From IMG/VR virus record IMGVR_UViG_2541047878_000001, positions 1-44,521 of that record: a stretch of 44,521 bases of DNA. The stretch is one strand, 5' to 3'. How positions within the stretch are numbered: the stretch's first letter is position 1; the number at the start of each line of letters is the position of its first letter. Both the position numbers and the translations under genes were made by a program. Shown piece by piece: positions 2,850 to 34,003 of the stretch. The stretch comes from a virus (lineage: Duplodnaviria; Heunggongvirae; Uroviricota; Caudoviricetes). The notes beneath the pieces were generated by a model that was given only the letters and a program-made list of their open reading frames with translations, was not told the DNA's origin and did not search any database.

Positions 2850-3154
2850 TATTTCACCTCTTGCTGTGACATTGTTGAAAAATGGATACCAGCTCGTTGC
2901 TGCCAGACGATCCAACCGAGAGTCATATCCCATGCCATGTATTCGTTATCGCCGTTTTTTGCTCTCCGACGATCTACTAAGTCACCGAAACGCTTTTCCA
3001 TGAATAATTCATAAGCTTCGCGTTCATCTGGTTCTACTTCCAGAGATAGGAGTGCGATTTCATAAGCACGGCGCTCAATATCGTCTCGCACGTCAAGGCT
3101 GCTGATACGCTCTTTAATTTCTTTAATCAGTTCTTTGTCGGTAAAAGTGGTCAT
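2849..3154 (-). CDS. Hypothetical early-region protein (101 aa)
   Basis: ORF translationally coupled to neighbours in the leftward operon; no recognisable motif. Confidence 0.4.
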   Translation of the reverse strand: MTTFTDKELIKEIKERISSLDVRDDIERRAYEIALLSLEVEPDEREAYELFMEKRFGDLVDRRRAKNGDNEYMAWDMTLGWIVWQQRAGIHFSTMSQQEVK

Positions 3155-3510
3155 TATGCTCCAGCCTCCGGTGCTTTTGGCATTACTGCCCAGTGAGTGA
3201 TATTGACGTTTTCAAGGTCCCCGACCTGAAATGTCCACTGCCATTCTCCGGTTTCTTTTTGTCCCCAGGTGTACCAGAGAGAACGCCAGCCAATTAGCCA
3301 GCCTTCTCCGTTAGCATCGAATAACAAAACACTTTCATTTGCTGGTGGCAGTTCAGTTGACACTGGTATTACTTTGTTTTCCTGTGCTGCACATTTAGCT
3401 TCAAGCGCATCGAATTTACGCACCAGGTATTCAGCATCTGTTTCATTTACTTTCAGATCTCGCGGTACACATCTCCCACGAAGAAACCCTTCCATTTCGA
3501 AAACATTCAT
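3154..3510 (-). CDS. Hypothetical phage protein, W-rich C-terminus (about 118 aa)
   Basis: ORF in leftward operon; start placed at the ATGA overlap with the upstream gene stop. Confidence 0.4.
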   Translation of the reverse strand: MNVFEMEGFLRGRCVPRDLKVNETDAEYLVRKFDALEAKCAAQENKVIPVSTELPPANESVLLFDANGEGWLIGWRSLWYTWGQKETGEWQWTFQVGDLENVNITHWAVMPKAPEAGA

Positions 3511-4043
3511 GCGCATTTGCGTAACTCCGATAACTCGTTAAAGCGTTCCATAAACATCCCGTAGGCATGGCCCGGTGCCAGTGGAATCACGTTGAACATC
3601 TCTGTTGCCGGGATACCTTCCAGTACAGGCCAGAAAGAGCCATCATCAAGCCCGAGATCGCGGCGTTCGGTTGCCAGCATGATGAGATCGGCATATTTCA
3701 CGGGCGTACTCATAACCGGGGGTAACCCGTATTTCTCACGGATTACGGCGTCTATTTTTTCTTCCATTTGTTTATAGTCAGGAAGAAGGCGTTTCAGTGG
3801 TGCGGGAATGTCCTGGCAATACGCTTCTGTTGCATCATGCATTAACGCTTCAAAAGCAAATTCCTGCGGCACCAGCTGGCTGCAAAGAACCGCATGTTGG
3901 GCGACGCTGTAGAAGTGCGAAAGATGACCGGCAAAGCGACAGATATTTGAAAGGGAAACCGCGATATCGTTAATATCGATGTCGTCTTTATTTATCCTGT
4001 CATAATAAAAATGCTTCCCGGAAAAAGTTTTAATAAATGACAT
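3507..4043 (-). CDS. HD-domain phosphohydrolase (YfbR-like nucleotidase family)
   Basis: H...HD motif (AQHAV...LMHDATEAY...DIPAPLK) resembling YfbR-type dNMP phosphohydrolases; GGAG RBS before the internal ATG (MSFIKTF), the track ORF starting upstream at GTG. Confidence 0.55.
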   Translation of the reverse strand: MSFIKTFSGKHFYYDRINKDDIDINDIAVSLSNICRFAGHLSHFYSVAQHAVLCSQLVPQEFAFEALMHDATEAYCQDIPAPLKRLLPDYKQMEEKIDAVIREKYGLPPVMSTPVKYADLIMLATERRDLGLDDGSFWPVLEGIPATEMFNVIPLAPGHAYGMFMERFNELSELRKCA

Positions 4044-4139
4044 TTTGTTCTCCACGTATATGCGCTGCACCGCGCTGAATTCTGGTAAAAAGAATCCCTC
4101 ACCATCCGGCGATTATTGAGTAAATTACGTTTCCATAAA

Positions 4140-4440
4140 TGCCCCCGTAGGGGCGGTTAGTTTCTCCACAAAACAGAGAAGAACACCTGCGGTGGCAGCC
4201 GCCCGGATGGATTGGGTTATGAGCCCGTCGTCCGGTGATGCTCTTCTCTGTTTTGTAAAAAGGACGGTACCAGCCGGAAGCAAGGGTACAAACTGGTACC
4301 TCCAGGACTACACACAGCATAAAGTTGTGGTGCCGGGTGCCTCCCGGTGCCTGGCGAAGGTTGCACACCAGGCGGGTGGGTATCCACAGAAGGTCGACTG
4401 TCAGCCTCAACCTTAACCCGCGTGCGCTGAGCCGCATTCA
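4140..4440. ncRNA. Candidate structured non-coding RNA (unclassified); strand not determined
   Basis: GC-rich block with overlapping short ORFs in several frames, a perfect 15-bp inverted repeat (ACAAAACAGAGAAGA near 4169 / TCTTCTCTGTTTTGT near 4241) enclosing GC-rich sub-hairpins, and hairpin GCCCC-CGTA-GGGGC at 4141-4155. Confidence 0.2.
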
Positions 4441-4719
4441 CCACAACGCTAAGGATTCTCTCTGGTTGAAAATACTTAGCTGTTATGTGCCTGTCTTTTC
4501 ACCACTTCAGGCTCGGTGGTATCCTTTTAAGCCCGTATACATAAAAGGAAAATCAAATGACTTTTGATGAAAAAGAACTTGATAATGCAATTAATAAAAT
4601 CATCGTAACGTCGCTCTTTTCCTGTCTCAGCGACACTCAGCAAAAACAGTTCTACGAATCGGCTTTCAACATGATCGAGCGTTGTTGTTTCTGCGATGCC
4701 GACGAGTTACCTGAAAAAA

Positions 4720-4995
4720 TCAGGAAACAGTTGGCTGATGCTCTTCGAGTGCGACTTTCTGACCAATTTTCTGAAATGTACTCTCCGAATTTGGACAAAT
4801 AGAAAAAGGCCATTTCCATTCAGGGTCTGATGGAAAGACTTCAGCCTGTTCTAAAGCACGGCGTAAAGAGAACACAACTCCAGCCATAATCTGATGTTTC
4901 CCATTGGTCCAGCTATTGCCGCTCTGATCTACAGGAGCGGCTATGTCGTATGACCAAACGACTTCACCACTATTGTTTAAAATCTGGACTTTCAT
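4720..4995 (-). CDS. Hypothetical small protein (91 aa)
   Basis: ORF with GGAGG upstream, adjacent to the stop of the 5004-5225 ORF; overlaps a plus-strand ORF (4557-4802), so the call is tentative. Confidence 0.3.
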   Translation of the reverse strand: MKVQILNNSGEVVWSYDIAAPVDQSGNSWTNGKHQIMAGVVFSLRRALEQAEVFPSDPEWKWPFSICPNSESTFQKIGQKVALEEHQPTVS

Positions 4996-5225: not shown

Positions 5226-5313
5226 AGTATTTAACGAATCATCCGGTCATTCATACGCCACCGGCGGCTACTTCGTGGGCGTCCTGCCTGTCCGTGATAG
5301 CTTACATTATGTT

Positions 5314-5429: not shown

Positions 5430-5933
5430 TTATTGATAGTGTTTTATGTTCAGATAATGCCCGATGACTTTGTCATGCAGCTCCACCGATTTTGAGAACG
5501 ACAGCGACTTCCGTCCCAGCCGTGCCAGGTGCTGCCTCAGATTCAGGTTATGCCGCTCAATTCGCTGCGTATATCGCTTGCTGATTACGTGCAGCTTTCC
5601 CTTCAGGCGGGATTCATACAGCGGCCAGCCATCCGTCATCCATATCACCACGTCAAAGGGTGACAGCAGGCTCATAAGACGCCCCAGCGTCGCCATAGTG
5701 CGTTCACCGAATACGTGCGCAACAACCGTCTTCCGGAGCCCGTCATACGCGTAAAACAGCCAGCGCTGGCGCGATTTAGCCCCGACATAGCCCCACTGTT
5801 CGTCCATTTCCGCGCAGACGATGACGTCACTGCCCGGCTGTATGCGCGAGGTTACCGACTGCGGCCTGAGTTTTTTAAGTGACGTAAAATCGTGTTGAGG
5901 CCAACGCCCATAATGCGGGGTGTTGCCCGGCAT
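5430..5933 (-). CDS. insB: IS1 InsB (transposase frame, expressed as InsAB' by -1 frameshift)
   Basis: 167-aa ORF overlapping the insA 3' end within IS1. Confidence 0.85.
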
Positions 5934-6127
5934 CCAACGCCATTCATGGCCATATCAATGATTTTCTGGTGCGTACCGGGTTGAGAAGCGGTGTAAGTGA
6001 ACTGCAGTTGCCATGTTTTACGGCAGTGAGAGCAGAGATAGCGCTGATGTCCGGCGGTGCTTTTGCCGTTACGCACCACTCCGTCAGTAGCTGAACAGGA
6101 GGGACAGTTGATAGAAACAGAAGCCAC
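5852..6127 (-). CDS. insA: IS1 InsA
   Basis: 91-aa ORF with zinc-finger-like CPSC...CSHC inside IS1. Confidence 0.85.
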
Positions 6128-6324: not shown

Positions 6325-7401
6325 TTACTTTGTAAGTTCTAGAACTCGTTGAGCCAGCCCTTTAAATTGTTCGTTAAAGGCGTCTCTGCTTGATTTCATT
6401 GTATTTAAGGCATGCCCAAATTGCCCTGAATCGCGAATTTGCTGATCACTGATGGAGAAAACAGGTGTCGCTAGTTGTTGGCTTATTGCGATTAATGAGT
6501 TGAAATCGGAAATATGCGCAAGATCATAGGCTGATAAATCTCCACTGACTGTTGTTTTGTTAATTGCATGTTGCACTTTATCTCGTGGAATTATGCAGGT
6601 AATTTTTTCTAGATTTGGCACTAAGATCGAATCAACAGCATCACGGATAGCTGCCATCCATTTTTCGAAAGATTTTACAGGTGCTCCTTTACGCGGCCTG
6701 TATCTCTGCTGAATCATACCTAGAAACTGCGGTGCATTTTTAATTGATTGTGAAGAGTTACCATCATTATTTTCTTTAAATAATGCTAATTCTTTGTGCC
6801 AGCGAGGTATATTTTTTGAGAGAGAGCGAATTGCTTGCCAGCAAAAAAAGTCTGGAGCTACAGGTACGATAAAATAGTCACTTGACATGAGAACTACTTC
6901 ATTTAAACCTCCAATATTAGGGCTGAGATCATAAAGAATGTAATCAATATTATTCTTCATGGCGATTAGCTGTAATATTTTTGGCAGGTTCCCTGGTATA
7001 TTTCTTGTAGCAGGAATACCAGCAGCAATTTTTAGAGAAACACTTATCTGTGAATCTAAGTCCGAAACATCTAAATGTCCGGGAAGAAGCAGAAGGTTTT
7101 CATGCAGTGTAGGGTGTAATTTTCCCGTTTCTTTTTCAAGGTATGCTTCAGGTTGTCCGCCATTAATCAAATATTCTACAATAGGTCCAAGAGTTAAGTT
7201 ATCTCTGCTAGAATAAAAAGAATCTAAACCCTCATCAATCTTTTCATAGCCAAGAACCATTCCTGTTAGATTACATTGCGAATCAAGGTCAACCATCAAT
7301 ACTTTCTTGCCTTCATCCGCAAGTGCCCATCCAAGATTGAAGGTTGTTGTGGTTTTACTTACCCCACCTTTATGATTAAAAAAACAAATTGATTTTGTCA
7401 T
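6325..7401 (-). CDS. ParA/MinD-like ATPase with C-terminal extension (358 aa), orphan
   Basis: Deviant Walker A NHKGGVSKTT and ParA-like N-terminal region; AT-rich by eye; sits between the OL-like operators and cI, co-oriented with cI; no parB-like partner nearby. Confidence 0.7.
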   Translation of the reverse strand: MTKSICFFNHKGGVSKTTTTFNLGWALADEGKKVLMVDLDSQCNLTGMVLGYEKIDEGLDSFYSSRDNLTLGPIVEYLINGGQPEAYLEKETGKLHPTLHENLLLLPGHLDVSDLDSQISVSLKIAAGIPATRNIPGNLPKILQLIAMKNNIDYILYDLSPNIGGLNEVVLMSSDYFIVPVAPDFFCWQAIRSLSKNIPRWHKELALFKENNDGNSSQSIKNAPQFLGMIQQRYRPRKGAPVKSFEKWMAAIRDAVDSILVPNLEKITCIIPRDKVQHAINKTTVSGDLSAYDLAHISDFNSLIAISQQLATPVFSISDQQIRDSGQFGHALNTMKSSRDAFNEQFKGLAQRVLELTK

Positions 7402-7571
7402 ATTTCTCTATCCTTTCGACCCCCAGTATATTGTAATTTACGCTGGGTGATTATTTTATATTGTTAATGATAATGTTTAATAAAAATAAGAGAGTAAAAC
7501 AACTATTAGTAATAGCGCTTGCTTGCTAAATATTATTTTTTTACCTTTAGTTCTATAGTCTAAACGAAGAA

Positions 7572-8276
7572 CTAAAGCCGGTTGTATTTAATTGATTCGT
7601 GTATCAATGCTTTGCCCATAACATAAAGTTGATCTTGGGACTTCTCATCAATGTACCATTTCTCATAGGCTGGATTATCCGAAAGAACGGCGAGTTTGTT
7701 GCCTTGCATTTGTAGACGTTTAACGTGGAACGTCTTACCATAAACGAAAGAGTAAACACCATCAGTTTGGAAGTTGCGAACAGAAATGTCGACAAACAGT
7801 CGATCTCCGGAAACTAGAGTAGGGGACATGCTGTCGCCATTTACAGTCATAACTTTAATATCATCTTGAGAACGATTACCGAAAAGAGAACGGGCATGCT
7901 CTGTTGTGAACTCAATGGCGTAGAGCACATCAACATAGTCTGAAAGCATATAGGTCCCAGGTCCTGCGCTAACGCTAAGATCCAAAACTTCTATCCTGTA
8001 TACATCGGGTTTTGTTGGATTGGGGATGCTTGCCATTTCCTTACATCCTTCTCTCTCGCCAACACCATATTCTAAATATGAAGCTGATACCCCCAGAGCC
8101 AATGCAAGTTTATTCATGACAGAGGCACGAGGCTTCGCAGCGCCGATTGTGTATCGCCGCGCCATTTCATATGTAACGCCCACAAGACTTTTGAGTTGGG
8201 TGACAGAAATTCCCTTGTTTGTCATTAGCTCGTTTAGTCTCTTGGCGAAATCTGGATACTTCTGTTCTTCTACCAT
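7572..8276 (-). CDS. cI: CI-like repressor (HTH plus LexA-like S24 peptidase domain)
   Basis: N-terminal HTH (MTNKGISVTQLKSLVGV) and C-terminal S24-like domain (VNGDSMSPTL...GKTFHVKRL); start ambiguous between 8276, 8312 and 8333, and 8276 leaves a typical operator-containing intergenic region. Confidence 0.8.
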   Translation of the reverse strand: MVEEQKYPDFAKRLNELMTNKGISVTQLKSLVGVTYEMARRYTIGAAKPRASVMNKLALALGVSASYLEYGVGEREGCKEMASIPNPTKPDVYRIEVLDLSVSAGPGTYMLSDYVDVLYAIEFTTEHARSLFGNRSQDDIKVMTVNGDSMSPTLVSGDRLFVDISVRNFQTDGVYSFVYGKTFHVKRLQMQGNKLAVLSDNPAYEKWYIDEKSQDQLYVMGKALIHESIKYNRL

Positions 8277-8314
8277 AGGTAGAAGATTACTCGCATCACA
8301 TACGCTAGTCATTT

Positions 8315-23408: not shown

Positions 23409-24036
23409 TGTACCGCTGAGTCTGAAATCTGTCAGTGACTCCGGTGAGTTTGAAGGGTATGGCTCCGTCTTTGGTGTAAAGGACAGCCACGATGATGTGG
23501 TGATGTCCGGGGCATTTGCTGCTTCCCTGCGGGCGTGGAGTGACAGAAAAGCGTTACCTGCGCTGCTCTGGCAGCACCGCATGGATGAACCCATCGGTGT
23601 TTACACCGAAATGAAGGAAGACGATGTCGGGCTTTACGTCAGGGGGCGGTTGCTCATTGATGATGATCCCCTGGCAAAACGCGCACATGCACACATGAAG
23701 GCCGGTTCGTTAACCGGCCTTTCTATTGGGTACGTCCTGAAGGACTGGGAATACGACCGGACGAAAGAAGCCTTTCTGCTGAAAGAAATCGACCTCTGGG
23801 AAGTCAGTCTGGTGACGTTTCCGTCTAACGACGAGGCGCGGATCAGCGACGTCAAGAACGCGCTGGCCCGCGGGGAAATCCCCGAACAGAAAAAAATCGA
23901 AAGAGTCCTGCGTGATGTCGGACTCTCCCGTACCCAGGCCAAAGCATTCATGGCCGGGGGCTATGGCGCACTGTCCCTGCGCGACGCTGAGGATGTGGGC
24001 TCTGCACTGAATGCACTGAAAAATCTGAACTTCTAA
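23386..24036 (+). CDS. Prohead maturation protease (HK97 family)
   Basis: N-terminal FEGYGSVFGVKDSHDDVV... pattern; start placed at the ATG preceded by AAGGA rather than the track ORF start. Confidence 0.7.
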   Translation: MQTKQRLDVPLSLKSVSDSGEFEGYGSVFGVKDSHDDVVMSGAFAASLRAWSDRKALPALLWQHRMDEPIGVYTEMKEDDVGLYVRGRLLIDDDPLAKRAHAHMKAGSLTGLSIGYVLKDWEYDRTKEAFLLKEIDLWEVSLVTFPSNDEARISDVKNALARGEIPEQKKIERVLRDVGLSRTQAKAFMAGGYGALSLRDAEDVGSALNALKNLNF

Positions 24037-24050
24037 TCAGGAGAAATACG

Positions 24051-25256
24051 ATGGCGGTAGATATTAAAGATGTCGAACAGGTCGCGCAGGAGCTGCAGCA
24101 GAAGTTTGACGACTTCAAAGCAAAGAACGACAAGCGCGTGGATGCGATTGAGCAGGAAAAAGGCAAGCTTGCCGGGCAGGTGGAAACCCTGAACGGGAAA
24201 CTCAGCGAGCTGGAAAATCTCAAAAGCGATCTTGAAAAAGAGCTGCTTGAGCTGAAACGTCCGGCAGGTGGCGCGCAAAATAAACTGGCCACCGAGCATA
24301 AAGAAGCGTTTGTGGGCTTTTTGCGTAAAGGCCGTGAAGATGGTCTGCGCGATCTGGAGCGTAAGGCATTGCAGGTGGGCACCGATGAAGACGGTGGCTA
24401 TGCCGTGCCGGAAGCGCTGGATCGCAACATTCTCACCCTGCTGAAAGATGAAGTGGTGATGCGCCAGGAAGCCACGGTGATCACCGTTGGCGGTTCCGAC
24501 TACAAAAAACTGGTGAATCTGGGCGGCACGGCTTCCGGATGGGTGGGGGAAACGGATACGCGATCCCAGACTGCCACCTCCAGACTGGAGCTGATTGAAC
24601 CTCTCATGGGGGAAATCTACGGCAACCCGCAGGCCACCCAGAAAATGCTGGATGATGGCTTCTTCAACGTGGAGGCCTGGATCAACAGCGAGCTGGCAAC
24701 CGAATTTGCCGAACAGGAAGAAATTGCCTTTACCACCGGCGATGGTACCAAGAAGCCGAAAGGGTTCCTGGCGTATGAATCCACTGATGAAACCGATAAG
24801 GTCCGGGCGTTCGGCAAACTTCAGCATATTGTATCCGGCGAAGCGACCGCGGTGACCGCAGACGCCATTATCAAACTGATTTACACGCTGCGAAAGGCAC
24901 ACCGCACTGGCGCGAAGTTCATGATGAACAACAACAGCCTGTTTGCCATCCGTCTGCTGAAAGACACCGAGGGTAACTATCTGTGGCGTCCGGGGCTGGA
25001 ACTGGGGCAGCCGTCCTCTCTGGCGGGTTACGGTATCGCTGAAAACGAACAGATGCCGGATATCGCCGCTGATGCGAAAGCCATTGCATTTGGTAACTTC
25101 AAACGGGGTTACACCATCGTTGACCGTATCGGCACCCGCATTCTGCGTGATCCGTACACCAATAAACCGTTTGTCGGTTTTTATACCACCAAGCGCACCG
25201 GCGGGATGCTGGTCGATTCGCAGGCCATCAAACTGCTGAAGATTGCAGCGGCGTAA
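24051..25256 (+). CDS. Major capsid protein (HK97 fold) with N-terminal scaffolding-like region
   Basis: 401 aa with a coiled-coil N-terminus followed by a capsid-like body, after the protease. Confidence 0.8.
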   Translation: MAVDIKDVEQVAQELQQKFDDFKAKNDKRVDAIEQEKGKLAGQVETLNGKLSELENLKSDLEKELLELKRPAGGAQNKLATEHKEAFVGFLRKGREDGLRDLERKALQVGTDEDGGYAVPEALDRNILTLLKDEVVMRQEATVITVGGSDYKKLVNLGGTASGWVGETDTRSQTATSRLELIEPLMGEIYGNPQATQKMLDDGFFNVEAWINSELATEFAEQEEIAFTTGDGTKKPKGFLAYESTDETDKVRAFGKLQHIVSGEATAVTADAIIKLIYTLRKAHRTGAKFMMNNNSLFAIRLLKDTEGNYLWRPGLELGQPSSLAGYGIAENEQMPDIAADAKAIAFGNFKRGYTIVDRIGTRILRDPYTNKPFVGFYTTKRTGGMLVDSQAIKLLKIAAA

Positions 25257-25305
25257 TCATTCAGGGGCGCGGAACCGCGCCCCCTGTTCTGACGGGTGAA
25301 GAATC

Positions 25306-25506
25306 ATGATCCTGAAACAAGATCTGAAATGGTCACCGGACGGTATGCGTGTTGAGGTCATTCGGGCCGGTGAGTATGACGACGGGGCGCTTCCTGCCCG
25401 GGTGCAGGAGATTGCACTTCAGGCCGGGTTAGCTGAGCGCGGAACCAGTGCAAAAAGCAGTAAAGCGGCAAAAGAGAAAAAAGCCACGACCAGTAAAGAG
25501 AGCTGA
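25306..25506 (+). CDS. Small head-module protein (66 aa)
   Basis: Short ORF with a lysine-rich tail. Confidence 0.3.
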   Translation: MILKQDLKWSPDGMRVEVIRAGEYDDGALPARVQEIALQAGLAERGTSAKSSKAAKEKKATTSKES

Positions 25507-25508
25507 GT

Positions 25509-25832
25509 ATGCTTCTGACAATGGAAGAGATTAAAGCCCAACTCCGGCTGGATGAGGATTTCGATGCTGATGACCGCCATCTGCAACTGCTGGCCTGTGC
25601 GGCGCAAAAGCGGACGGAAACGTATCTGAACCGGAAGCTCTATGCACCGGATGAATCCATTCCGGACAGCGATCCGGACGGGCTGCACCTGCCGGATGAT
25701 ATTCGTCTGGGGATGCTGATGCTTATCAGCCATTTTTACGAAAACCGCTCGTCGGTTACGGAAGTGGAGAAACTCGACATGCCGCAGAGTTTTGGCTGGC
25801 TTGTCGGCCCGTACAGGTACTTTCCGCAATGA
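25509..25832 (+). CDS. Head-tail connector (gp6-like)
   Basis: About 107 aa with the EEIKAQLRLDED start typical of gp6-like connectors. Confidence 0.55.
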   Translation: MLLTMEEIKAQLRLDEDFDADDRHLQLLACAAQKRTETYLNRKLYAPDESIPDSDPDGLHLPDDIRLGMLMLISHFYENRSSVTEVEKLDMPQSFGWLVGPYRYFPQ

Positions 25833-26239
25833 AAATTCGTCAGGCGCAGACCAGCGCAACTTACATTCTGCCGGACCCCGGTGAACTGAATAAATGCGTC
25901 CTGATCCGCCTGCGGGTGGATATGCCCGCGGATAACTTTGGCGTGGAGCCTCAATACCCGGTTACGTTCCGGACATGGGCGAAGGTTATCCAGACCAGTG
26001 CCACCACCTGGCAGGAAACCGCGCAGACCGGGGACGCCATCACCCATTACATCACCATTCGTTACCGCCGGGGGATCACCGCTGATTATGAGGTGGTCTG
26101 CGGTGACAGTGTGTACCGGGTGAAACGTCAGCGCGATCTGAACGGGGCGCGGCGCTTTCTGCTGCTGGAGTGTACGGAGCTGGGCGAATGTAGGCAGAGT
26201 CACGGAGGCAACAATGACGACTTCCTTTTTGCACGTTGA
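25829..26239 (+). CDS. Head-tail adaptor / head closure protein
   Basis: Position and size in the head-tail joining block. Confidence 0.45.
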   Translation: MKIRQAQTSATYILPDPGELNKCVLIRLRVDMPADNFGVEPQYPVTFRTWAKVIQTSATTWQETAQTGDAITHYITIRYRRGITADYEVVCGDSVYRVKRQRDLNGARRFLLLECTELGECRQSHGGNNDDFLFAR

Positions 26240-26720
26240 TTTTCAGCAGCCCGCGGAGATGCGCTTTAACCGCGCCCGTGTCCGGCGGGCGTTTGTCACG
26301 ATTGGTCAGCGTCATATGCGTGATGCCCGTCGGCTGGTGATGCGCCGTGCGCGGTCGGCACCGGGTGAAAACCCTGGTTATCAGACCGGACGCCTGGCTC
26401 GTTCGATTGGTTACATGGTACCCAGAGCCAGTAAACATCGCCCTGGTTTTATGGCACGTATAGCCCCTAACCAGCGTAATGGAGAGGGAAACCGCCGTAT
26501 CACCGGTGATTTTTATCCGGCTTTTTTGTTCTATGGCGTGAGGCGAGGGGCAAAGCGTCGTCGCAGCCATCATCGTGGCGCATCCGGTGGCAGCGGCTGG
26601 CGACTGGCTCCACGTAATAACTTCATGGTGGAAACGCTTGAAAAGAACCGCAGCTGGACACGCTATTTTCTGGCGCGGGAATTGCGTAAATCACTGAAGC
26701 CGGAGCGACGACACAGATGA
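26214..26720 (+). CDS. HK97 gp10-like neck/tail component
   Basis: Basic, arginine-rich protein at the head-tail junction position. Confidence 0.4.
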   Translation: MTTSFLHVDFQQPAEMRFNRARVRRAFVTIGQRHMRDARRLVMRRARSAPGENPGYQTGRLARSIGYMVPRASKHRPGFMARIAPNQRNGEGNRRITGDFYPAFLFYGVRRGAKRRRSHHRGASGGSGWRLAPRNNFMVETLEKNRSWTRYFLARELRKSLKPERRHR

Positions 26721-27277
26721 AACTGACGCCTGTTATTGCTGCACTGCGTGCCCGCTGTCCGTATTTTGAAAACCGGGTTGCAGGCGCGGCCCAGTTCAAA
26801 AATCTGCCGGAGGTCGGAAAGCTGAAACTCCCGGCGGCATATGTTGTACCGGGTGATGATTCTCCGGGAGAAAACAAAAGCCAGACCGACTACTGGCAGG
26901 AGCTGAAAGAGGGCTTCTCCGTGGTTGTCATACTGAGTAACGGGCGTGATGAGCGCGGTCAGTTTGCTTCGTATGATGTGGTGGACGATGTCCGGCAGAT
27001 GCTCTTTAAGGCCCTGCTGGGCTGGAACCCGGAAGCGTGCGGTAACCCGATTACCTATGACGGCGGCACGCTGCTGGATCTGAATCGTCATGAGCTGATT
27101 TATCAGTTCGATTTTTCGGTCATCAGCGAGCTGACCGAAGACGATACCCGCCAGCAGGATGACCTGAACAGTCTGGATGAACTGCGAACGCTGGCGATTG
27201 ATGTTGATTATCTCGATCCCGGTAACGGGCCTGACGGCGATATCGAACATCACACCGAAATACCCCTTCCTTCCTGA
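26717..27277 (+). CDS. Tail-associated structural protein (186 aa)
   Basis: ORF preceding the sheath gene. Confidence 0.4.
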   Translation: MKLTPVIAALRARCPYFENRVAGAAQFKNLPEVGKLKLPAAYVVPGDDSPGENKSQTDYWQELKEGFSVVVILSNGRDERGQFASYDVVDDVRQMLFKALLGWNPEACGNPITYDGGTLLDLNRHELIYQFDFSVISELTEDDTRQQDDLNSLDELRTLAIDVDYLDPGNGPDGDIEHHTEIPLPS

Positions 27278-27439
27278 GGATCATCATGTTTGTGAAACCT
27301 GTTAAAGGGCGGTCAGTGCCTGACCCTGCCCGCGGCGACCTTTTGCCCGCCGAAGGGCGAAATGTTGATGAGAACAACTACTGGCTGCGCCGTGAAGCAG
27401 CTGGTGATATCCGGCGCGTGAATAAAAAGGTGAACACCG

Positions 27440-28936
27440 ATGACGATAAGCTTTAACACCATTCCGTCGAATACGCTGGTTCCGCTGTTTTATGCGGAAA
27501 TGGATAACCAGGCGGCGAATACTGCACAGGACAGCGGAGCATCGCTGCTGATTGGTCATGCCAATAACGGTGCAGAGATTGTTGCCAACAGTCTGGTGCT
27601 GATGCCGTCGGCAGACTATGCACGCCAGATTTGTGGTGCGGGAAGTCAGCTGGCGCGTATGGTCGAGGCTTATCGCCAGACCGACCCGTTTGGTGAGCTG
27701 TATGTGATTGCCGTTCCGGAAGCCACAGGTGCGGCGGCAACGGTTACGCTGACGGTGACCGGGGAAGCAACCGAAAGCGGCACGGTGAATGTCTATGTGG
27801 GACGTACCCGCGTGCAGGCTCCGGTGACCAACGGCGATAACGTCACGACGATTGCCAGCAGTATCAAAGATGCCATCAATGCCGTTCCGACTCTGCCGTT
27901 TACAGCTTCATCTTCGGCTGGCGTGGTCACACTGACCGCGCGTCATAAGGGGCTTTGCGGGAATGAAATTCCTGTCAGCCTCAATTACTACGGCTTTGGT
28001 GGGGGCGAAGTGCTGCCTGCGGGCGTACAGATTGCCGTGGCGACGGGGACCGCCGGAACGGGCTCTCCTGTTCTCACCGGCGCGGTGGCTGCAATGGCGG
28101 ATGAGCCGTTTGATTATATCGGCCTGCCGTTCAACGACACGGCCTCCGTTAACACGCTGGTGACCGAGATGAACGATACCAGCGGTCGCTGGAGCTATGC
28201 GCGTCAGCTGTATGGTCATGTGTATACGGCAAAGATCGGCACGCTGTCAGAACTGGTGACCGCAGGTGACCAGTTTAACCAGCAGCACATTACCCTGGCG
28301 GGGTACGAAAAAGAGACCCAGACGCCTGCTGACGAGCTGGCGGCAAGCCGTACCGCCCGCGCAGCGGTGTTTATTCGCAACGATCCGGCACGTCCCACGC
28401 AGACCGGTGAGCTGGTGGGTATGCTGCCTGCGCCGAAGGGGAAACGGTTCACGATGACCGAACAACAGACCCTGCTGTCTCATGGCGTGGCAACGGCGTA
28501 TGTCGAAAGCGGGGTGCTACGCATTCAGCGTGATGTCACCACGTACAGGAAAAACGCTTACGGGGTTGCGGATAACAGCTACCTCGACAGTGAGACACTG
28601 CATACCAGCGCGTATGTACTGCGCAAACTGAAATCCGTCATTACCAGTAAGTACGGGCGTCACAAGCTTGCCAGTGACGGTACCCGCTTTGGTCCCGGTC
28701 AGGCGATTGTCACCCCGGCGGTGATCAAAGGGGAACTGCTGGCAACCTACCGTCAGCTTGAGCGTGCGGGGATCGTGGAAAACTACGAACTGTTTAAGCA
28801 GTACCTGGTTGTGGAGCGTGATGCCAGCGATCCGAACCGCCTGAACACGCTGTTCCCGCCTGACTATGTTAACCAGTTGCGTGTCTTTGCCGTGGTTAAC
28901 CAGTTCCGTCTTCAGTATTCAGAGGAGTCTGCATAA
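27440..28936 (+). CDS. Contractile tail sheath protein
   Basis: 498-aa ORF followed by a 118-aa tube gene; N-terminus typical of Mu/P2-type sheath proteins. Confidence 0.8.
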   Translation: MTISFNTIPSNTLVPLFYAEMDNQAANTAQDSGASLLIGHANNGAEIVANSLVLMPSADYARQICGAGSQLARMVEAYRQTDPFGELYVIAVPEATGAAATVTLTVTGEATESGTVNVYVGRTRVQAPVTNGDNVTTIASSIKDAINAVPTLPFTASSSAGVVTLTARHKGLCGNEIPVSLNYYGFGGGEVLPAGVQIAVATGTAGTGSPVLTGAVAAMADEPFDYIGLPFNDTASVNTLVTEMNDTSGRWSYARQLYGHVYTAKIGTLSELVTAGDQFNQQHITLAGYEKETQTPADELAASRTARAAVFIRNDPARPTQTGELVGMLPAPKGKRFTMTEQQTLLSHGVATAYVESGVLRIQRDVTTYRKNAYGVADNSYLDSETLHTSAYVLRKLKSVITSKYGRHKLASDGTRFGPGQAIVTPAVIKGELLATYRQLERAGIVENYELFKQYLVVERDASDPNRLNTLFPPDYVNQLRVFAVVNQFRLQYSEESA

Positions 28937-29292
28937 TGGCACGTATCGGGGGAACCTGTTATTTCAAAATTGACGGTCAGCAGCTATCGCTGACCGGCGG
29001 CATTGAGGTGCCCATGAACAGGACGGTCAATGATGACATCATCGGCCTGGACGGTTCAGTGGACCGCAAGGAAACTCACCGTGCGCCCTATGTCAAAGGG
29101 ACCTTCAAGGTGCCGAAGAATTTTCCGGTGAGCAAAATCACCTCGTCTGATGAGATGACCATCACTGCCGAGCTGGCGAACGGTCAGGTCTATGTACTGT
29201 CGTCTGCCTGGCTGCACGGCGAAGCGAACCATAATGCCGAAGAAGGCACGGTCGATCTTGAGTTCCACGGTGAAGAAGGGGATTACCAGTAA
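28936..29292 (+). CDS. Tail tube protein
   Basis: 118 aa directly after the sheath, overlapping stop/start. Confidence 0.65.
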   Translation: MARIGGTCYFKIDGQQLSLTGGIEVPMNRTVNDDIIGLDGSVDRKETHRAPYVKGTFKVPKNFPVSKITSSDEMTITAELANGQVYVLSSAWLHGEANHNAEEGTVDLEFHGEEGDYQ

Positions 29293-29710
29293 TGAAAGAG
29301 CTTGAGTTAAAGAAACCGATTACTGCTCATGGCGAGACACTCTCCGTACTGGAGTTTGATGAGCCCACCGGGAAAGATGTCCGCGAGCTGGGGTATCCCT
29401 ACCAGATGAATCAGGATGAGTCCGTCAGACTTCTGGCGCATGTGGTATCGAAATACATCGTGCGGCTGGCGAAAGTGCCGCAAAGCTCTGTCGACCAGAT
29501 GTCTCCGGCAGACCTGAATGCAGCGGCGTGGCTTGTGGCCGGTTTTTTCCTCCAGGCCTGACGGCTGAATACCTCACTGATCGCTTCTTTGACTGCGCCA
29601 GTTACTGGCGCATTAATCCTTTCGAATTGCTGAATATGCCGATCAGTGAAATTCCCTTACTGGTCAGTCAGGCAAACAGGATAGAGCAGGAGAAACGCAC
29701 ACATGGCTGA
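29292..29710 (+). CDS. Tail assembly chaperone pair with programmed -1 frameshift (29292-29561 frame 0; 29528-29710 frame -1)
   Basis: Two overlapping ORFs between tube and tape measure; canonical slippery heptamer T-TTT-TTC at about 29543-29549 in the overlap. Confidence 0.5.
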
Positions 29711-31538
29711 ATTTGAGCTTAAGGCGTTGATCACCGGTGTCGACAGGCTTTCTCCCGCGCTGTCGAAAATGCAAAAGAAAATCCGGGGATTTAAACGCCA
29801 GGCGGAAGAAGCGTCACAGGGTGGGCTGGCGCTTGGTGGCGGACTGGCAGCGGGTCTGACGCTTTCCCTGAAATCTTATGCCGATCAGGAAAACGCCGCC
29901 ACCGGGCTGAAAGTCGCCATGATGGATGCGAACGGCGAGGTTGGAAAGAGCTTTCAGGACATCAATAAACTGGCTATTGGCCTGGGTAACCAGCTACCTG
30001 GTACAACGGCTGATTTCCAGAACATGATGCAGATGCTGGTGCGTCAGGGGATCCCGGCAGAAAACATTCTGGGTGGTGTGGGTAAAGCGACAGCTTATCT
30101 TGCGGTACAACTGAAAAAAACACCGGAAGCGGCTGCTGAGTTTGCTGCAAAGATGCAGGATGCTACCGGAACGGCGTCAGAAGACATGATGGGGCTGTTC
30201 GACACTATCCAGAAGGCGTTTTATCTGGGCGTTGACGATACCAACATGTTGTCCTTCTTCACTAAAACCAGTTCTGTTCTGAAGATGGTGAACAAGGATG
30301 GTCTTCAGGCTGCGCAGAGCCTTGCCCCCATCAGCGTCATGATGGATCAGATGGGGATGAACGGGGAGTCGGCAGGTAATGCCCTGCGAAAAGTTATCCA
30401 GTCCGGATTAAGCGTTAAGAAAATCAGGGACGTTAATAAAGTTATGGCCCGCCAGAAACTCGGGGTACAGCTCGATTTTACTGACGGCAAAGGAAGTTTT
30501 GGCGGTCTTGATAACATGTTCAGGCAACTGGCAAAGCTGCGAAAACTGACCGACGTTAAGCGAACAGGTGTACTTAAGGCAATATTTGGTGATGATGCCG
30601 AAACCCTTCAGGTGGTCAATGCACTAATCGATAAAGGAAAGGATGGCTACGATCAGATCCAGCAGAAGATGAATAAACAGGCCAGCCTGAATAAACGTGT
30701 TCAGGCACAGCTTGGTACGCTGTCCAACCTGTGGGAGGCAATGACAGGGACCGCAACTAACGGCCTTGCGGCTATTGGCGGCGCATTTTCTGGTGACGCT
30801 AAAAATATCACACAATGGCTGGGGGAGTTGGGGGAGAAATTCACGAAGTTTGCGGATGAAAATCCCCGGGTTATTCGCGGCGTCGTCGGGCTTGCTGCCG
30901 GTCTTGCGATTCTGAAACTGGGATTGATGGGCGTGGGCAGTGCCATCAGTATTGTCAGCAGGATTATGTCGATGACGCCGATTGGCATGATTGCGACGGC
31001 GATTGCTCTGGCTGCGGGATTAATTATCACTAACTGGGATGTTGTCGGACCTTATTTCAAGAAGCTCTGGGAAACCATTGGTCCTTATTTTGAGGCAGGT
31101 TGGGAACTTCTGAAGAAGGTTTTTGCCTGGTCGCCGCTGGGGATGGTGATCAATAACTGGGGACCGGTTGTTAAGTGGTTTCAGGATATGTGGGACAAGC
31201 TGAAGCCAATTATTGAGTGGTTTACCGACAGTTCCGGTGACACGGTCGATGCCATTAACTCTGCGCAGTGGGGCGCGGGTGCTTATGATGCTTATGGGAC
31301 GGGAATACCGGCACGGGGATACACACCTTATCAGGCGGTGGATCCGGCTCAGTCAAACAACGCCTCCGATGCCACAGGCCCGAATCCCTTCATGATTAAC
31401 AAAGCTTCTGCGCCAAAAGTTGATGGTGAGATCAAGGTCTCTTTTGTGAATTCGCCTCCGGGTATGCGGGTTATGGAAACGCGATCCAGCGGTTTTGATG
31501 TCAGCCATGATGTTGGCTATACGCGCTTTGGCAGGTAA
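29703..31538 (+). CDS. Tail tape measure protein
   Basis: 611 aa, Gly/Ala-rich with hydrophobic segments, following the chaperone pair. Confidence 0.8.
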   Translation: MAEFELKALITGVDRLSPALSKMQKKIRGFKRQAEEASQGGLALGGGLAAGLTLSLKSYADQENAATGLKVAMMDANGEVGKSFQDINKLAIGLGNQLPGTTADFQNMMQMLVRQGIPAENILGGVGKATAYLAVQLKKTPEAAAEFAAKMQDATGTASEDMMGLFDTIQKAFYLGVDDTNMLSFFTKTSSVLKMVNKDGLQAAQSLAPISVMMDQMGMNGESAGNALRKVIQSGLSVKKIRDVNKVMARQKLGVQLDFTDGKGSFGGLDNMFRQLAKLRKLTDVKRTGVLKAIFGDDAETLQVVNALIDKGKDGYDQIQQKMNKQASLNKRVQAQLGTLSNLWEAMTGTATNGLAAIGGAFSGDAKNITQWLGELGEKFTKFADENPRVIRGVVGLAAGLAILKLGLMGVGSAISIVSRIMSMTPIGMIATAIALAAGLIITNWDVVGPYFKKLWETIGPYFEAGWELLKKVFAWSPLGMVINNWGPVVKWFQDMWDKLKPIIEWFTDSSGDTVDAINSAQWGAGAYDAYGTGIPARGYTPYQAVDPAQSNNASDATGPNPFMINKASAPKVDGEIKVSFVNSPPGMRVMETRSSGFDVSHDVGYTRFGR

Positions 31539-31560
31539 TGAAAAATTAATCTGTTAATGA

Positions 31561-31583
31561 GTCCCACTCCGGTGGGATTTTTT
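31561..31583 (+). terminator. Hairpin with T-run inside the tail operon (attenuator-like)
   Basis: TCCCAC-TCCG-GTGGGA followed by a run of six T, between tape measure and the next gene. Confidence 0.35.
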
Positions 31584-31598
31584 ATGTACGGAGTTTAT

Positions 31599-32927
31599 AT
31601 GACGTGGAAAGACAGACTTCAGGACGCGTCATTTCGCGGTGTGCCATTTAAGGTTGAAGAAGAAAGTGCGGGAACCGGTCGTCGTGTGGAAACGCACGAA
31701 TACCCGAACCGCGACAAACCCTATACCGAAGACCTGGGGAAAATCACTTTCCGCCCGTCCATCACAGCTTATGTGGTGGGAGATGACTGCTTTGACCAGC
31801 GCGATCGCCTGATTGACGCGCTGAATAAACCCGGTCCCGGCACGCTTGTCCATCCGACTTACGGTGAGCTGAAAGTCTGTGTTGACGGGGAAGTTCGGGT
31901 CAGCACATCGAAGAGTGAAGGGCGTATTGTCCGCTTTGACCTGAAGTTTGTCGAAGCGGGAGAACTCTCTTACCCCACTTCAGGTGCGGCGACGGCGCAG
32001 ACGCTGATGTCATCCTGTTCTGCACTGGATGACTGCATCAGCGACAGCTTCAGTGGTTTCAGTATCGATGGCGTGGCAGATTTTGTGCAGAACGACGTCG
32101 TCGGTAATGCCAGCACAATGCTTGGGTATGTTTCTGATGCGATGAAAGTGGTGGATTCTGCCGTATCGGATGCCGCCAGGCTATTGCAGGGGGATATCTC
32201 GGTACTTCTGCCGCCGCCATCGTCAGGCAAAAATTTCGTTGAGCAGGTGCAGAAAATGTGGCGTACCGGGAAACGCCTTTATGGTAACGCCAGCGACCTG
32301 GTCACCATGATCAAAACGTTTTCCGGTGTCAGCCTCGGCAGCGATCTGCAACCGCGCGGCGTCTGGAAAACGGACAGTAAAACCACCGCCACGGCGACGC
32401 AGCAGCGTAACGTGGTTGCCAGCACCCTTCGTACGACCGCAATCAGCGAAGCGGCGTATGCCGTCACACGATTGCCTGCGCCCACAACTTCCGCGGTGAT
32501 GCAGAATGCCACAGTGGGGCAGTCAACAACACCCGCGCAGAGCACCGGCTGGCCTTCTGTCACGCATCCGGCACTGAACAATGCACCGGCGGTGAAAAAC
32601 ACGGTTGACCTGCCAACGTGGGAAGAACTGACCGACATTCGCGACACACTGAATACGGCAATTGATAAGGAGTTGTCCCGTACAACCAGTGATGCGCTGT
32701 TTCTGGCGCTGCGCCGGGTGAAAGCAGATCTGAATGCGGATATCAACACGCGCCTTGAACAGTCTGCACGGATCATTCAGCGCACGCCGGATGAGGTTTT
32801 ACCCGCGCTGGTGCTGGCGGCGACCTGGTTTGATAACGCGGCGCGTGACGCGGACATTATCCGGCGTAATGCCATTACGCATCCCGGCTTTGTGCCGGTG
32901 ATCCCTCTGAAGGTGCCAGTGCAATGA
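31599..32927 (+). CDS. DNA circulation protein (Mu N-like)
   Basis: Start placed at the ATG after a GGAG RBS (MTWKDRLQDASFRGVPF), not at the track ORF start. Confidence 0.6.
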   Translation: MTWKDRLQDASFRGVPFKVEEESAGTGRRVETHEYPNRDKPYTEDLGKITFRPSITAYVVGDDCFDQRDRLIDALNKPGPGTLVHPTYGELKVCVDGEVRVSTSKSEGRIVRFDLKFVEAGELSYPTSGAATAQTLMSSCSALDDCISDSFSGFSIDGVADFVQNDVVGNASTMLGYVSDAMKVVDSAVSDAARLLQGDISVLLPPPSSGKNFVEQVQKMWRTGKRLYGNASDLVTMIKTFSGVSLGSDLQPRGVWKTDSKTTATATQQRNVVASTLRTTAISEAAYAVTRLPAPTTSAVMQNATVGQSTTPAQSTGWPSVTHPALNNAPAVKNTVDLPTWEELTDIRDTLNTAIDKELSRTTSDALFLALRRVKADLNADINTRLEQSARIIQRTPDEVLPALVLAATWFDNAARDADIIRRNAITHPGFVPVIPLKVPVQ

Positions 32928-34003
32928 ACGACAATGTCACGCTACGGGTAAATGGCCGGGAGTGGAATGGCTGGACATCGGTGCGCATCGGTGCCGGTAT
33001 TGAACGGCTGGCGCGGGATTTCAGTGTGGAGATCACTCGCCAGTGGCCGGGAGATGAGGGTATCACCACGCTTCAGCCGCGCATTAAAAACGGTTCAAAA
33101 GTGGAAGTGCTGATTGGTGATGAGCTGGTGATCACCGGCTGGGTGGAGGCGACTCCCGTTCGTTACGATGCCCGTTCGGTCAGCACCGGTATTGCCGGAC
33201 GTAGTCTGACGGCTGACCTGATTGACTGTGCAGCCGAACCGACACAGTTTAACGGACGCTCGCTGGTGCAGATTGTGCAGGCGCTTGCTGCGCCTTTTGG
33301 CATTGAGGTGGTGAACAGCGGTGCGCCGTCGGGTGTTATTCCTGATGTTCAGCCTGATCACGGTGAAACGGTGATTGAGGTAATCAACAAAATACTCGGT
33401 CAGCAGCAGGCGCTGGCTTACGACGACCCGCACGGCAGGCTGGTGATTGGCGGTATTGGCTCAACGCGGGCACATACCGCGCTGGTACTTGGGGAAAACA
33501 TCCTTTCCTGTGATACGGAGAAGAGTATCCGGGAGCGGTTTTCTGTTTACCAGGTGGCGGGGCAGCGTGCCGGAAACGACGATGATTTCGGTGAGGCCAC
33601 CACCACCGCGCTGCGGGCCCGCACAGAGGACGCATTTATTGCCCGTTACCGTCCGATGTATATCAGGCAGACAGGGCAGGCCACGGGGGCAGGCTGTATT
33701 GCGCGTGCTGACTTTGAAGCCCGACAACGGGCGGCGCGGACGGATGAAACCACCTATGTGGTGCAGGGCTGGCGACAGGGTAACGGTACGCTGTGGCAGC
33801 CCAACCAGCGGGTGATTGTCTTCGATCCGGTCTGTGGTTTCGACAATACCGAACTGCTTGTTTCGGAAGTCACGTTTACTCAGGACCAGAACGGAACCCT
33901 GACGGAAATCCGTGTCGGCCCGCCTGATGCTTATCTGCCTGAACCCGAAGATCCCGGCGCGCGGAAAAAGAAAAAAGCCAGAGTACAGGAGGACCCGTTC
34001 TGA
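32924..34003 (+). CDS. Baseplate hub / Mu P-like tail protein
   Basis: 359-aa ORF in the Mu-type baseplate order. Confidence 0.55.
   Translation: MNDNVTLRVNGREWNGWTSVRIGAGIERLARDFSVEITRQWPGDEGITTLQPRIKNGSKVEVLIGDELVITGWVEATPVRYDARSVSTGIAGRSLTADLIDCAAEPTQFNGRSLVQIVQALAAPFGIEVVNSGAPSGVIPDVQPDHGETVIEVINKILGQQQALAYDDPHGRLVIGGIGSTRAHTALVLGENILSCDTEKSIRERFSVYQVAGQRAGNDDDFGEATTTALRARTEDAFIARYRPMYIRQTGQATGAGCIARADFEARQRAARTDETTYVVQGWRQGNGTLWQPNQRVIVFDPVCGFDNTELLVSEVTFTQDQNGTLTEIRVGPPDAYLPEPEDPGARKKKKARVQEDPF

Follow-up and report, generated by a model that had tools for sequence, protein, structure and literature searches.

What is the strongly structured block that lies directly upstream, in the transcriptional sense, of the gene yfdR in a lambdoid prophage of Escherichia coli: a protein gene, a site in the DNA, or an RNA, and if an RNA, of what kind? 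The window analyzed here is the whole 44,521-nt IMG/VR virus record IMGVR_UViG_2541047878_000001, a segment of the E. coli chromosome in which a lambdoid prophage is inserted at tRNA-Thr, adjoining proA. The block occupies positions 4141 to 4447 of this window, with 5′ flanking hairpins up to about position 4525. It is read from the minus strand, like the int-proximal early operon. An initial annotation, made from the sequence alone, had proposed a structured RNA, a processing signal, or a recombination site at 4140 to 4440 and had been unable to assign it to a known RNA family. We find that the block can be placed after all: it is a divergent member of an RNA superfamily that includes STnc100 and PasD, and this family relation is well supported.

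The compositional and structural features listed in the initial annotation held. GC content is 58.1% in 4140 to 4440, compared with 45.4% and 42.6% in the 500-nt flanks, so that the interval stands out locally but is not extreme, at the 88th percentile of 301-nt windows. Five open reading frames (ORFs) overlap across 4099 to 4567, on both strands, as expected of GC-rich noncoding DNA: three on the minus strand (112 amino acids [aa] at 4099 to 4437, 75 aa at 4217 to 4444, and 52 aa at 4125 to 4283) and two on the plus strand (74 aa at 4192 to 4416 and 80 aa at 4325 to 4567). The perfect 15-bp inverted repeat pairs ACAAAACAGAGAAGA at 4168 to 4182 with 4242 to 4256 and extends to 25 nt at 84% complementarity; we calculate that a random sequence of 44.5 kb would contain about 0.004 such repeats spaced by up to 100 nt. 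The GCCCC-CGTA-GGGGC hairpin is at 4141 to 4154, and the further hairpin GGTACCAG/CTGGTACC lies at 4266 to 4273/4293 to 4300. Folding of positions 4130 to 4500 gave −161.1 kcal/mol for the minus strand (z = −6.97 versus shuffles) and −146.3 kcal/mol for the plus strand (z = −3.66 versus shuffles), and because of this difference we read the block as minus-strand RNA. Its structure reaches beyond the interval first noted, with a closing helix to 4447, a 5′ hairpin to 4480, and a conserved hairpin to 4520.

The stretch from 4100 to 4560 (461 nt) is present in 2926 of 5426 complete E. coli genomes, with at least 80% of the query covered at one place in 1339 of them. The Prokaryotic Genome Annotation Pipeline (PGAP) labels homologous copies “hypothetical protein” or “protein YmfH” and calls one 100% identical copy a frameshifted pseudogene, and the K-12 prophage e14 “gene” ymfH (3481 to 3792 in our e14 sequence, L002) is a homolog of the block at 91% identity. 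Which frame stays open the longest depends on the copy: it is frame 2 in most of those from E. coli, frame 1 in e14 and L083, and frame 3 in those from Salmonella, and 1-nt and 20-nt indels separate the E. coli from the Salmonella versions (ST64B and 118970_sal3) in an alignment of 22 copies. Thus, no frame is conserved among the homologs, and a Pfam search returned no match in any of four ORFs. Searches of the literature on ymfH, SfV orf33, and ST64B small RNA (sRNA) yielded no description of the element. Together with the Rfam match and the helix covariation presented below, the absence of a conserved frame supports the proposal of a structured RNA or processing signal rather than coding DNA: the block is a noncoding RNA on the minus strand and not a protein gene, a conclusion that is well supported.

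To which family does this RNA belong? At gathering thresholds, an Rfam scan of the whole window returned tRNA-Thr only. A permissive scan gave a single significant match, which covers STnc100 in full length on the minus strand (RF02076, 39.3 bits, E = 4.7 × 10−7, model positions 1 to 206, window 4255 to 4477), under the curated cutoff. The closing helix of the STnc100 type is present, with the 5′ motif UGGUGAAU represented by GUGGUGAAU at 4444 to 4436 and the 3′ motif, the 22-mer CACCGGGAGGCACCCGGCACCA, matched exactly at 4328 to 4349. This 22-mer occurs in at least 120 IMG/VR contigs, whose flanks form 26 clusters that BLAST cannot align with each other; most of these clusters are bona fide STnc100 (54 to 162 bits), and the window-type relatives phiES15, ST64B, L017, L065, and L085 do not reach the STnc100 cutoff. 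Helices P1, P2, P4, and P5 occur in the window copy in the same order as in canonical STnc100 copies, the pseudoknot is also present, and, as in STnc100, a linker leads to a 3′ intrinsic terminator (stem plus U5 at 4303 to 4257). STnc100 and PasD, an sRNA of enteropathogenic E. coli, are structurally related, Hfq-associated sRNAs of prophage late regions with 3′ terminators, and PasD has been validated by Northern blotting (10.64898/2026.05.13.724894); expression and Hfq association of STnc100 and PasD are documented in the same preprint and in PMC12370729. The window copy shares with them P1 with 5′ GGUGAAU and a prophage-borne location confined to Enterobacterales, and it differs in several respects. 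First, its P2 is GCGGC..GC(A)CGC, whereas canonical copies have CCCCC..GG(A)GGG. Second, it lies early left between repressor and int, whereas canonical copies belong to the late region around Q and lysis, with tRNA genes or stx as neighbors, either after stxB or between Q and holin. Third, it has no obvious promoter of its own and carries an extra 90-nt hairpin downstream. Among GTDB species representatives, about 31 of the 123 matches listed passed a 5′-motif filter, the pattern scan being diluted by chance hits in GC-rich genomes, and among the named records listed, all filtered matches were Enterobacterales except one 388-bp contig, which is probably contamination. Identity with PasB was rejected, as PasB resides within structural-gene operons.

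Several observations concern the canonical family itself. Canonical STnc100 forms tandem arrays of two to four units in late regions, beside phage tRNA genes, each unit apparently with its own terminator (IMG/VR contigs L015, 2265 to 3380; L023, 342 to 1038; L012; and L029). IsrI adjoins STnc100 units in L029 and L014, and Rfam isrK (64.3 bits) lies at 5232 to 5308 of L004, in the rightward early region of ST64B. The copies found in the late regions of Klebsiella phages lie just upstream of holin, and their promoters are constitutive and near consensus.

The core of the block is a 124-nt folded domain (4447 to 4324; like all RNA elements described below, on the minus strand), which is defined by the Rfam match and by covariation. 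It is closed by P1 (4447 to 4439 with 4332 to 4324), from which J1/2 (AAU) leads to P2 (4435 to 4420), made of 3 bp, a bulged A, 2 bp, and the loop UCAGC. The first pseudoknot strand, AAGGUUG (4414 to 4408), is followed by P3, a variable insert (4407 to 4374), and by P4 (4373 to 4366 with 4356 to 4349), whose loop holds the second pseudoknot strand, CAACCUU (4363 to 4357). P5 (4347 to 4343 with 4337 to 4333; loop AGGCA) completes the domain. We counted covariation in the helices over 33 cluster representatives, with the caveat that the motifs used as anchors influence in which helices variation can appear. The pairs of P1 alternate between AU, GC, UA, and CG and read GAUG/CAUC in GTDB copies. 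P2 fits 31 of the 33, and three of its pairs swap CG (18 representatives) for GC (13; at the third pair, 12 GC and one G-U), a swap that separates the canonical from the window types. P5 has GC in 28 representatives and UA in 5, and it is GGUGG/CCACC in phage LLS. The helices therefore covary across homologs.

Because the register of the pseudoknot varies between clusters, we evaluated it with an energy-based permutation and not with a column count. The duplex energy of each strand with its own partner averaged −9.4 kcal/mol, compared with −5.6 kcal/mol for cross-pairs (Mann-Whitney, P value = 2 × 10−7), and none of 10000 random matchings was as good. The strands change together from cluster to cluster, being AAGGUUG/CAACCUU in the window, AAGGCUG/CAGCCUU in phiES15, AGACUGACAAA/UUUGUCAGUCU in L017, and GCCAGGUC/GACCUGGC in L051, and the pseudoknot is common to all clusters. 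It is absent from the consensus structure line of Rfam STnc100. The junction nucleotides GGUGAAU, the GCG in the P2 loop, and CACC...GGCACC are near-invariant in the sampled representatives. The P5 of the e14 copy is damaged by a loop deletion and a broken pair, and this copy may be decaying. Two further ideas about the domain were rejected on inspection: alternative pairing between fold and terminator of the riboswitch type, since the terminators are unrelated between lineages and P2 is constant, and a sigma-dependent pause element in GGUGAAU, which lacks an A at position 2 of the −10-like hexamer.

On the upstream side, the domain is preceded immediately by the hairpin P0 (4448 to 4480), an inverted repeat GCUAAG.../...CUUAGC whose stem is swapped for GAUAAGAG/CUCUUAUC in ST64B and GAUGAGAG/CUCUCAUC in phage 118970_sal3. 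The P0 loop of 118970_sal3 (L005) and of the Citrobacter phage phiNP (L353) contains an insert with GGTTCGATTCCAG, a tRNA T-arm-like sequence that may be an attachment-site remnant or a tRNA fragment. Farther upstream is a conserved hairpin, ACCAC-CGAGCCUGAA-GUGGU (4501 to 4520), which we call module C; the 45-nt piece from 4480 to 4525 is about 95% identical in Klebsiella phages. Module C forms the 5′ end of the pL-like transcript in LLS, after TTGACC-17-TAGATT, and directly precedes a dicB-type copy of the fold in Klebsiella phage ST405-OXA48phi1.2.

On the downstream side, a conserved single-stranded box, AUGCUGUGUGUAGUC (4320 to 4306), separates the domain from the terminator. The pattern UGCUGUGUG(U/A)AG(U/A)C is kept in the window, SfV, e14, ST64B, 118970_sal3, phiES15, LLS, and phiNP, that is, in phages of E. 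coli, Salmonella, Cronobacter (phiES15), and Citrobacter (phiNP) and in LLS, while the structures on both of its sides vary; it survives a replaced terminator stem and, in phiNP, a replaced fold interior. This persistence makes the box a candidate seed or protein-binding site and a likely contact site. A search for its targets within the window returned the box itself and one chance-level site with three mismatches. The intrinsic terminator consists of a GC-rich stem, GGAGGUACCAG/CUGGUACC(G)UCC (4303 to 4293 with 4273 to 4262; 11 pairs and one bulged G), which passes directly into a U5 tract (4261 to 4257). It is conserved as a structure: the stem is wholly replaced in Salmonella (GUCGGCGUC/GACGCCGAC), LLS, and phiES15 with the U tract kept, compensatory double changes occur at pairs 18/76, 22/72, 23/71, and 24/70, and the U5-7 tract is invariant.

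The terminator is followed by a long hairpin of about 90 nt (4256 to 4168) with a stem of about 20 bp (4256 to 4237 with 4187 to 4168) and a branched top. This stem contains the 15-bp inverted repeat and two G-U pairs, which are possible solely in minus-strand RNA, and can be extended by pairing of the U tract with GGAGA. The compensatory changes of the hairpin are AU to CG at columns 87/194, GC to AU at 94/187, AU to GC at 98/183, and GC to AU at 109/133, and RNAalifold applied to the terminator plus long hairpin of seven lineages returned 48 consensus pairs, 10 with double changes. With 20 pairs, the helix has the length of an RNase III substrate (about 20 bp or more), and we infer that it is an RNase III-type processing element of read-through transcripts. 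It resembles the RNase III hairpins of the lambda N leader, sib, the T7 R sites, and the dicF region in being a wobble-bearing helix of about 20 bp between cistrons; cleavage here is predicted, and processing by RNase III is documented for the dicBF operon (PMC5069750; 10.1101/2023.04.14.536235). The last element is the small hairpin GCCCC-UACG-GGGGC (4154 to 4141), located where SfV has CGACC/GGGUCG and ST64B has GGCGG/CCGCC, in both cases shortly before the Shine-Dalgarno sequence that serves the first gene.

Next, we looked into the settings in which relatives of the fold occur. In SfV, ST64B, e14, mEp460, phiES15, LLS, and phiNP, the block invariably has the leftward repressor gene on one side and the first early-left gene on the other. 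The leader of LLS runs from a pL-like promoter (TTGACC-17-TAGATT) with palindromic operators through module C, a terminator, P0, and the fold to the box, a second terminator, the long hairpin, and yfdP, and no ORF precedes either terminator. In the phiNP leader, between the repressor gene and sb37, the fold motifs GGUGAAU and GGAGGCACC are absent, and about 170 nt of a different GC-rich sequence lie between GUUGUGG and CACAAC, with the box, terminator, and long hairpin kept; this looks like a domain swap. The block is mosaic, with 4143 to 4304 found alone in mEp460, cdtI, and Stx2c phages and with 4306 to 4463 and 4481 to 4534 also occurring separately.

A scan with the window-type 5′ motif revealed a large group of copies that directly follow an intrinsic terminator and have no terminator after them. 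Here, the fold leads straight into the Shine-Dalgarno sequence and the start codon of a gene for DicB, a KilR-like protein, or another early protein. Across the sampled copies, a rough classifier placed a terminator within 100 nt after about 60% and a Shine-Dalgarno sequence plus start codon after about 31%. One member is the dicF-dicB spacer of prophage Qin, which 4633 of 5426 E. coli genomes carry, in as many as 9 copies per genome, and in which the fold is unannotated. In K-12, Rfam DicF at 2989 to 3040 is followed by a subthreshold STnc100 match (34.1 bits) at 3052 to 3192, and the spacer (L232, 3047 to 3201, E. coli K-12 BW25113) has the same pseudoknotted fold with a 21-bp P1; in the KilR-like copies, the fold occupies the spacer between a DicF-like hairpin and the KilR-like gene. 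Both kinds of spacer share with the window the P2 type GCGGC..., the pseudoknot logic (CAGUUAA/UUAACUG), the early-left operon, and a subthreshold STnc100 score. Unlike the window copy, the Qin copy follows the DicF terminator and has its 21-bp P1 and a P5 of CCUGG/CCAGG, and in the dicB and KilR-like copies no terminator intervenes between the fold and the Shine-Dalgarno sequence of the gene.

RNase III yields a 72-nt DicF from the Qin dicBF operon (PMC5069750, citing Faubladier 1990). This form ends about 19 nt beyond the 53-nt form (PMC5069750), which would place its end inside the 5′ strand of the 21-bp P1 of the dicB type. The structure of the spacer is not described in a study of dicBF regulation (10.1101/2023.04.14.536235), and our literature search returned no description of the fold in dicF-dicB or KilR-like spacers. 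The same fold is reached by three routes, namely, from its own promoter and terminator, by termination inside an operon, and by apparent RNase III excision in dicBF; since three different routes make the same fold, its function appears to be carried by the RNA itself.

We lean, by a modest degree, toward the following account of how the block works: it would be a leader or intercistronic RNA of the leftward early operon, in which termination releases a structured sRNA and the long hairpin is where read-through transcripts are processed. As transcription arrives from the immunity side, the 124-nt domain would fold cotranscriptionally, and most polymerases would stop at the U tract at 4261 to 4257. 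Termination would release a stable sRNA of about 190 to 225 nt with an Hfq-type 3′ end, for which the conserved box would be the likely contact site, and would also insulate yfdR-xis-int. Read-through RNA would carry the 20-bp hairpin, and a cut by RNase III there would produce the downstream mRNA. Accumulation of the RNA, Hfq binding, a seed function of the box, and RNase III cleavage are predicted from the relatives and the structure. We favor the sRNA model because the relatives are documented Hfq-bound sRNAs, because three different routes lead to the fold, and because the late-region copies just upstream of holin speak against autonomous antitermination. Parallels exist in StxS and lambda 6S RNA, short phage RNAs whose transcription stops at the first terminator of their operon (pR′-tR′, late operon, Q control), where premature termination in the operon leader frees a stable RNA that may act in trans; in contrast to these parallels in mechanism, neither has a sequence or structural relation to the fold of the block.

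A number of points weigh against this account. The STnc100 score of the window copy falls short of the curated gathering cutoff of 47 bits, and the copy sits between the repressor side and yfdR-xis-int, not in the late region where STnc100 resides. No sigma-70 promoter was found directly upstream of the window fold by a consensus scan, and inspection gave weak candidates only, so that an independent sRNA gene is unsupported in the window. Literature searches turned up no expression data for the window-type subfamily. Moreover, a conserved pseudoknotted fold of five helices is far more than a base-pairing sRNA needs, a pure sRNA gene leaves the roughly 31% of gene-leader copies unexplained, and the two-terminator leader of LLS suggests regulated read-through.

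These last points belong to the main rival, in which the fold acts in cis as a put-like element that modifies RNA polymerase or as a nut-like loading site, giving read-through so that yfdR-xis-int are turned on after induction; we regard this as a tentative possibility, well short of probable. It would account for a fold whose complexity and invariance far exceed those of seed-type sRNAs, that in every case precedes the early-left genes in their own orientation, that forms the 5′ leaders of genes such as dicB and kilR-like genes, and that in LLS shares a leader with a pL-like promoter and two terminators. In addition, the annotations of the immunity and early-left stretches examined in SfV, ST64B, LLS, and e14 include no N-like gene. 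The fold resembles the put RNA of HK022 in being a structured RNA upstream of terminators in an early-operon leader, here of a lambdoid phage with no N-like gene seen in the stretches examined, but put measures about 70 nt and has two adjacent stem-loops without a closing helix or pseudoknot (PMC9378689), whereas the fold is closed by P1, pseudoknotted, and 105 to 140 nt long. Homology was rejected, as blastn gave no significant match and motif searches none at all in positions 24000 to 33000 of the HK022 record, the immunity region expected to hold putL and putR, where put sites are unannotated. The genomic contexts of the relatives also speak against a cis role. Autonomous antitermination by the Klebsiella late copies would mean constitutive expression of lysis genes, and with near-consensus promoters just upstream of holin, these copies cannot work as autonomous antiterminators. 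It is hard to see why a cis antiterminator would occur as tandem arrays of up to four fold-plus-terminator units, and the fold of Qin, located downstream of the DicF terminator, is unable to act on it.

An improbable alternative to the released sRNA is that the fold is a catalytic or tRNA-like RNA or a decoy, such as a self-cleaving ribozyme, an RNase P substrate that divides up polycistronic phage transcripts, or a mimic that titrates a host factor or defense protein. The pseudoknot and near-invariant junction nucleotides would fit such a role, as would the late-region copies that adjoin phage tRNA genes and occur in arrays, and P1 with the adjacent 5-bp P5 hairpin presumably resembles the acceptor/T-arm minihelix of tRNA. 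Set against this are the lack of any match to a ribozyme or tRNA-like family in Rfam and the position of the putative CCA inside P1. On the supporting side, an overexpressed clone of e14 “ymfH” triggered the RcaT toxin of retron-Sen2 in a screen (10.1101/2020.06.22.160242). This could be an RNA effect, because ymfH looks like an RNA and not a protein, but P5 is damaged in e14, and the retron effect may be unrelated to the fold.

It is very unlikely that the block serves as a DNA-level site (a recombination hot spot, module boundary, cruciform, or origin). Its mosaic pieces do occur separately, and the small hairpin does mark a joint: the window lacks yfdP and yfdQ (orf32 and orf31) of SfV, with 4050 to 4154 matching SfV downstream of orf31 and 4143 to 4620 matching it upstream of orf32 (SfV L003, 1604 to 1708 and 3001 to 3012). 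This joint suggests recombination between hairpin-bearing intergenic sequences, and the recombination site of the initial annotation stands in the trivial sense that the hairpin at 4141 to 4154 marks this deletion; otherwise, it does not. Covariation keeps G-U pairs that form solely in minus-strand RNA, the U tract and terminator geometry are strand specific, and the same fold occurs in three unrelated genomic contexts. A YmfH-like hypothetical protein, for which the PGAP labels and the open 112-aa ORF speak, is the least credible reading of all, given the shifting frames, the indels, the frameshifted identical copy, the absence of a Pfam domain, the ORFs on both strands, and the compensatory nature of the helix substitutions.

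The surroundings of the block in the window are those of an early-left operon. From the int side, the minus-strand genes are int (1459 to 2622), an excisionase-like helix-turn-helix gene, yfdT, a phage protein gene, and yfdR, which encodes a 5′-deoxynucleotidase (3507 to 4043). Farther upstream of the block lie two small genes, IS1, a ParA-like gene, and an XRE-type repressor gene. IS1 (5430 to 6127; insA/insB, with a programmed frameshift) is inserted where the small early-left genes adjoin the ParA-like/repressor side, probably cutting the leader off from the promoter it once had, and the block is probably transcribed from farther upstream, possibly across IS1. The ParA-family ATPase gene (6325 to 7401) is directly downstream of the repressor gene (about 7470 to 8280) and is an unusual occupant of the slot held by rexAB in lambda. 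PGAP annotates nothing at 4445 to 4719, so that the noncoding region reaches about 275 nt past the block; an 81-aa plus-strand ORF (4557 to 4802) overlaps this region and the annotated 91-aa minus-strand gene at 4720 to 4995.

We propose, tentatively and as a view that is more doubtful than probable, that STnc100, PasD, the dicF-dicB and KilR-like spacers, ymfH, and the block form one unrecognized superfamily, whose fold is possibly a cis antiterminator or switch of N-less lambdoid operons, or a ribonucleoprotein or decoy set free by termination or by RNase III. Such a superfamily would share a common pseudoknotted fold confined to prophages of Enterobacterales, which may be a functional module rather than a mere sRNA scaffold. 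The pseudoknot, with its good covariation support, is new relative to the Rfam consensus structure and to the Pas sRNA preprint, in which a pseudoknot and a relative from the early region both go unmentioned (10.64898/2026.05.13.724894). The finding would tie the Hfq-associated STnc100 and PasD to the dicF-dicB and KilR-like spacers, ahead of cell division inhibitors, and would reannotate ymfH and its homologs, a “hypothetical protein” in about half of complete E. coli genomes, as a structured RNA. Moreover, the early-left operons of SfV, ST64B, e14, and LLS hold terminators that have to be passed, with no N-like gene seen in the stretches examined, and the fold offers a concrete, mutable candidate for how these terminators may be passed.

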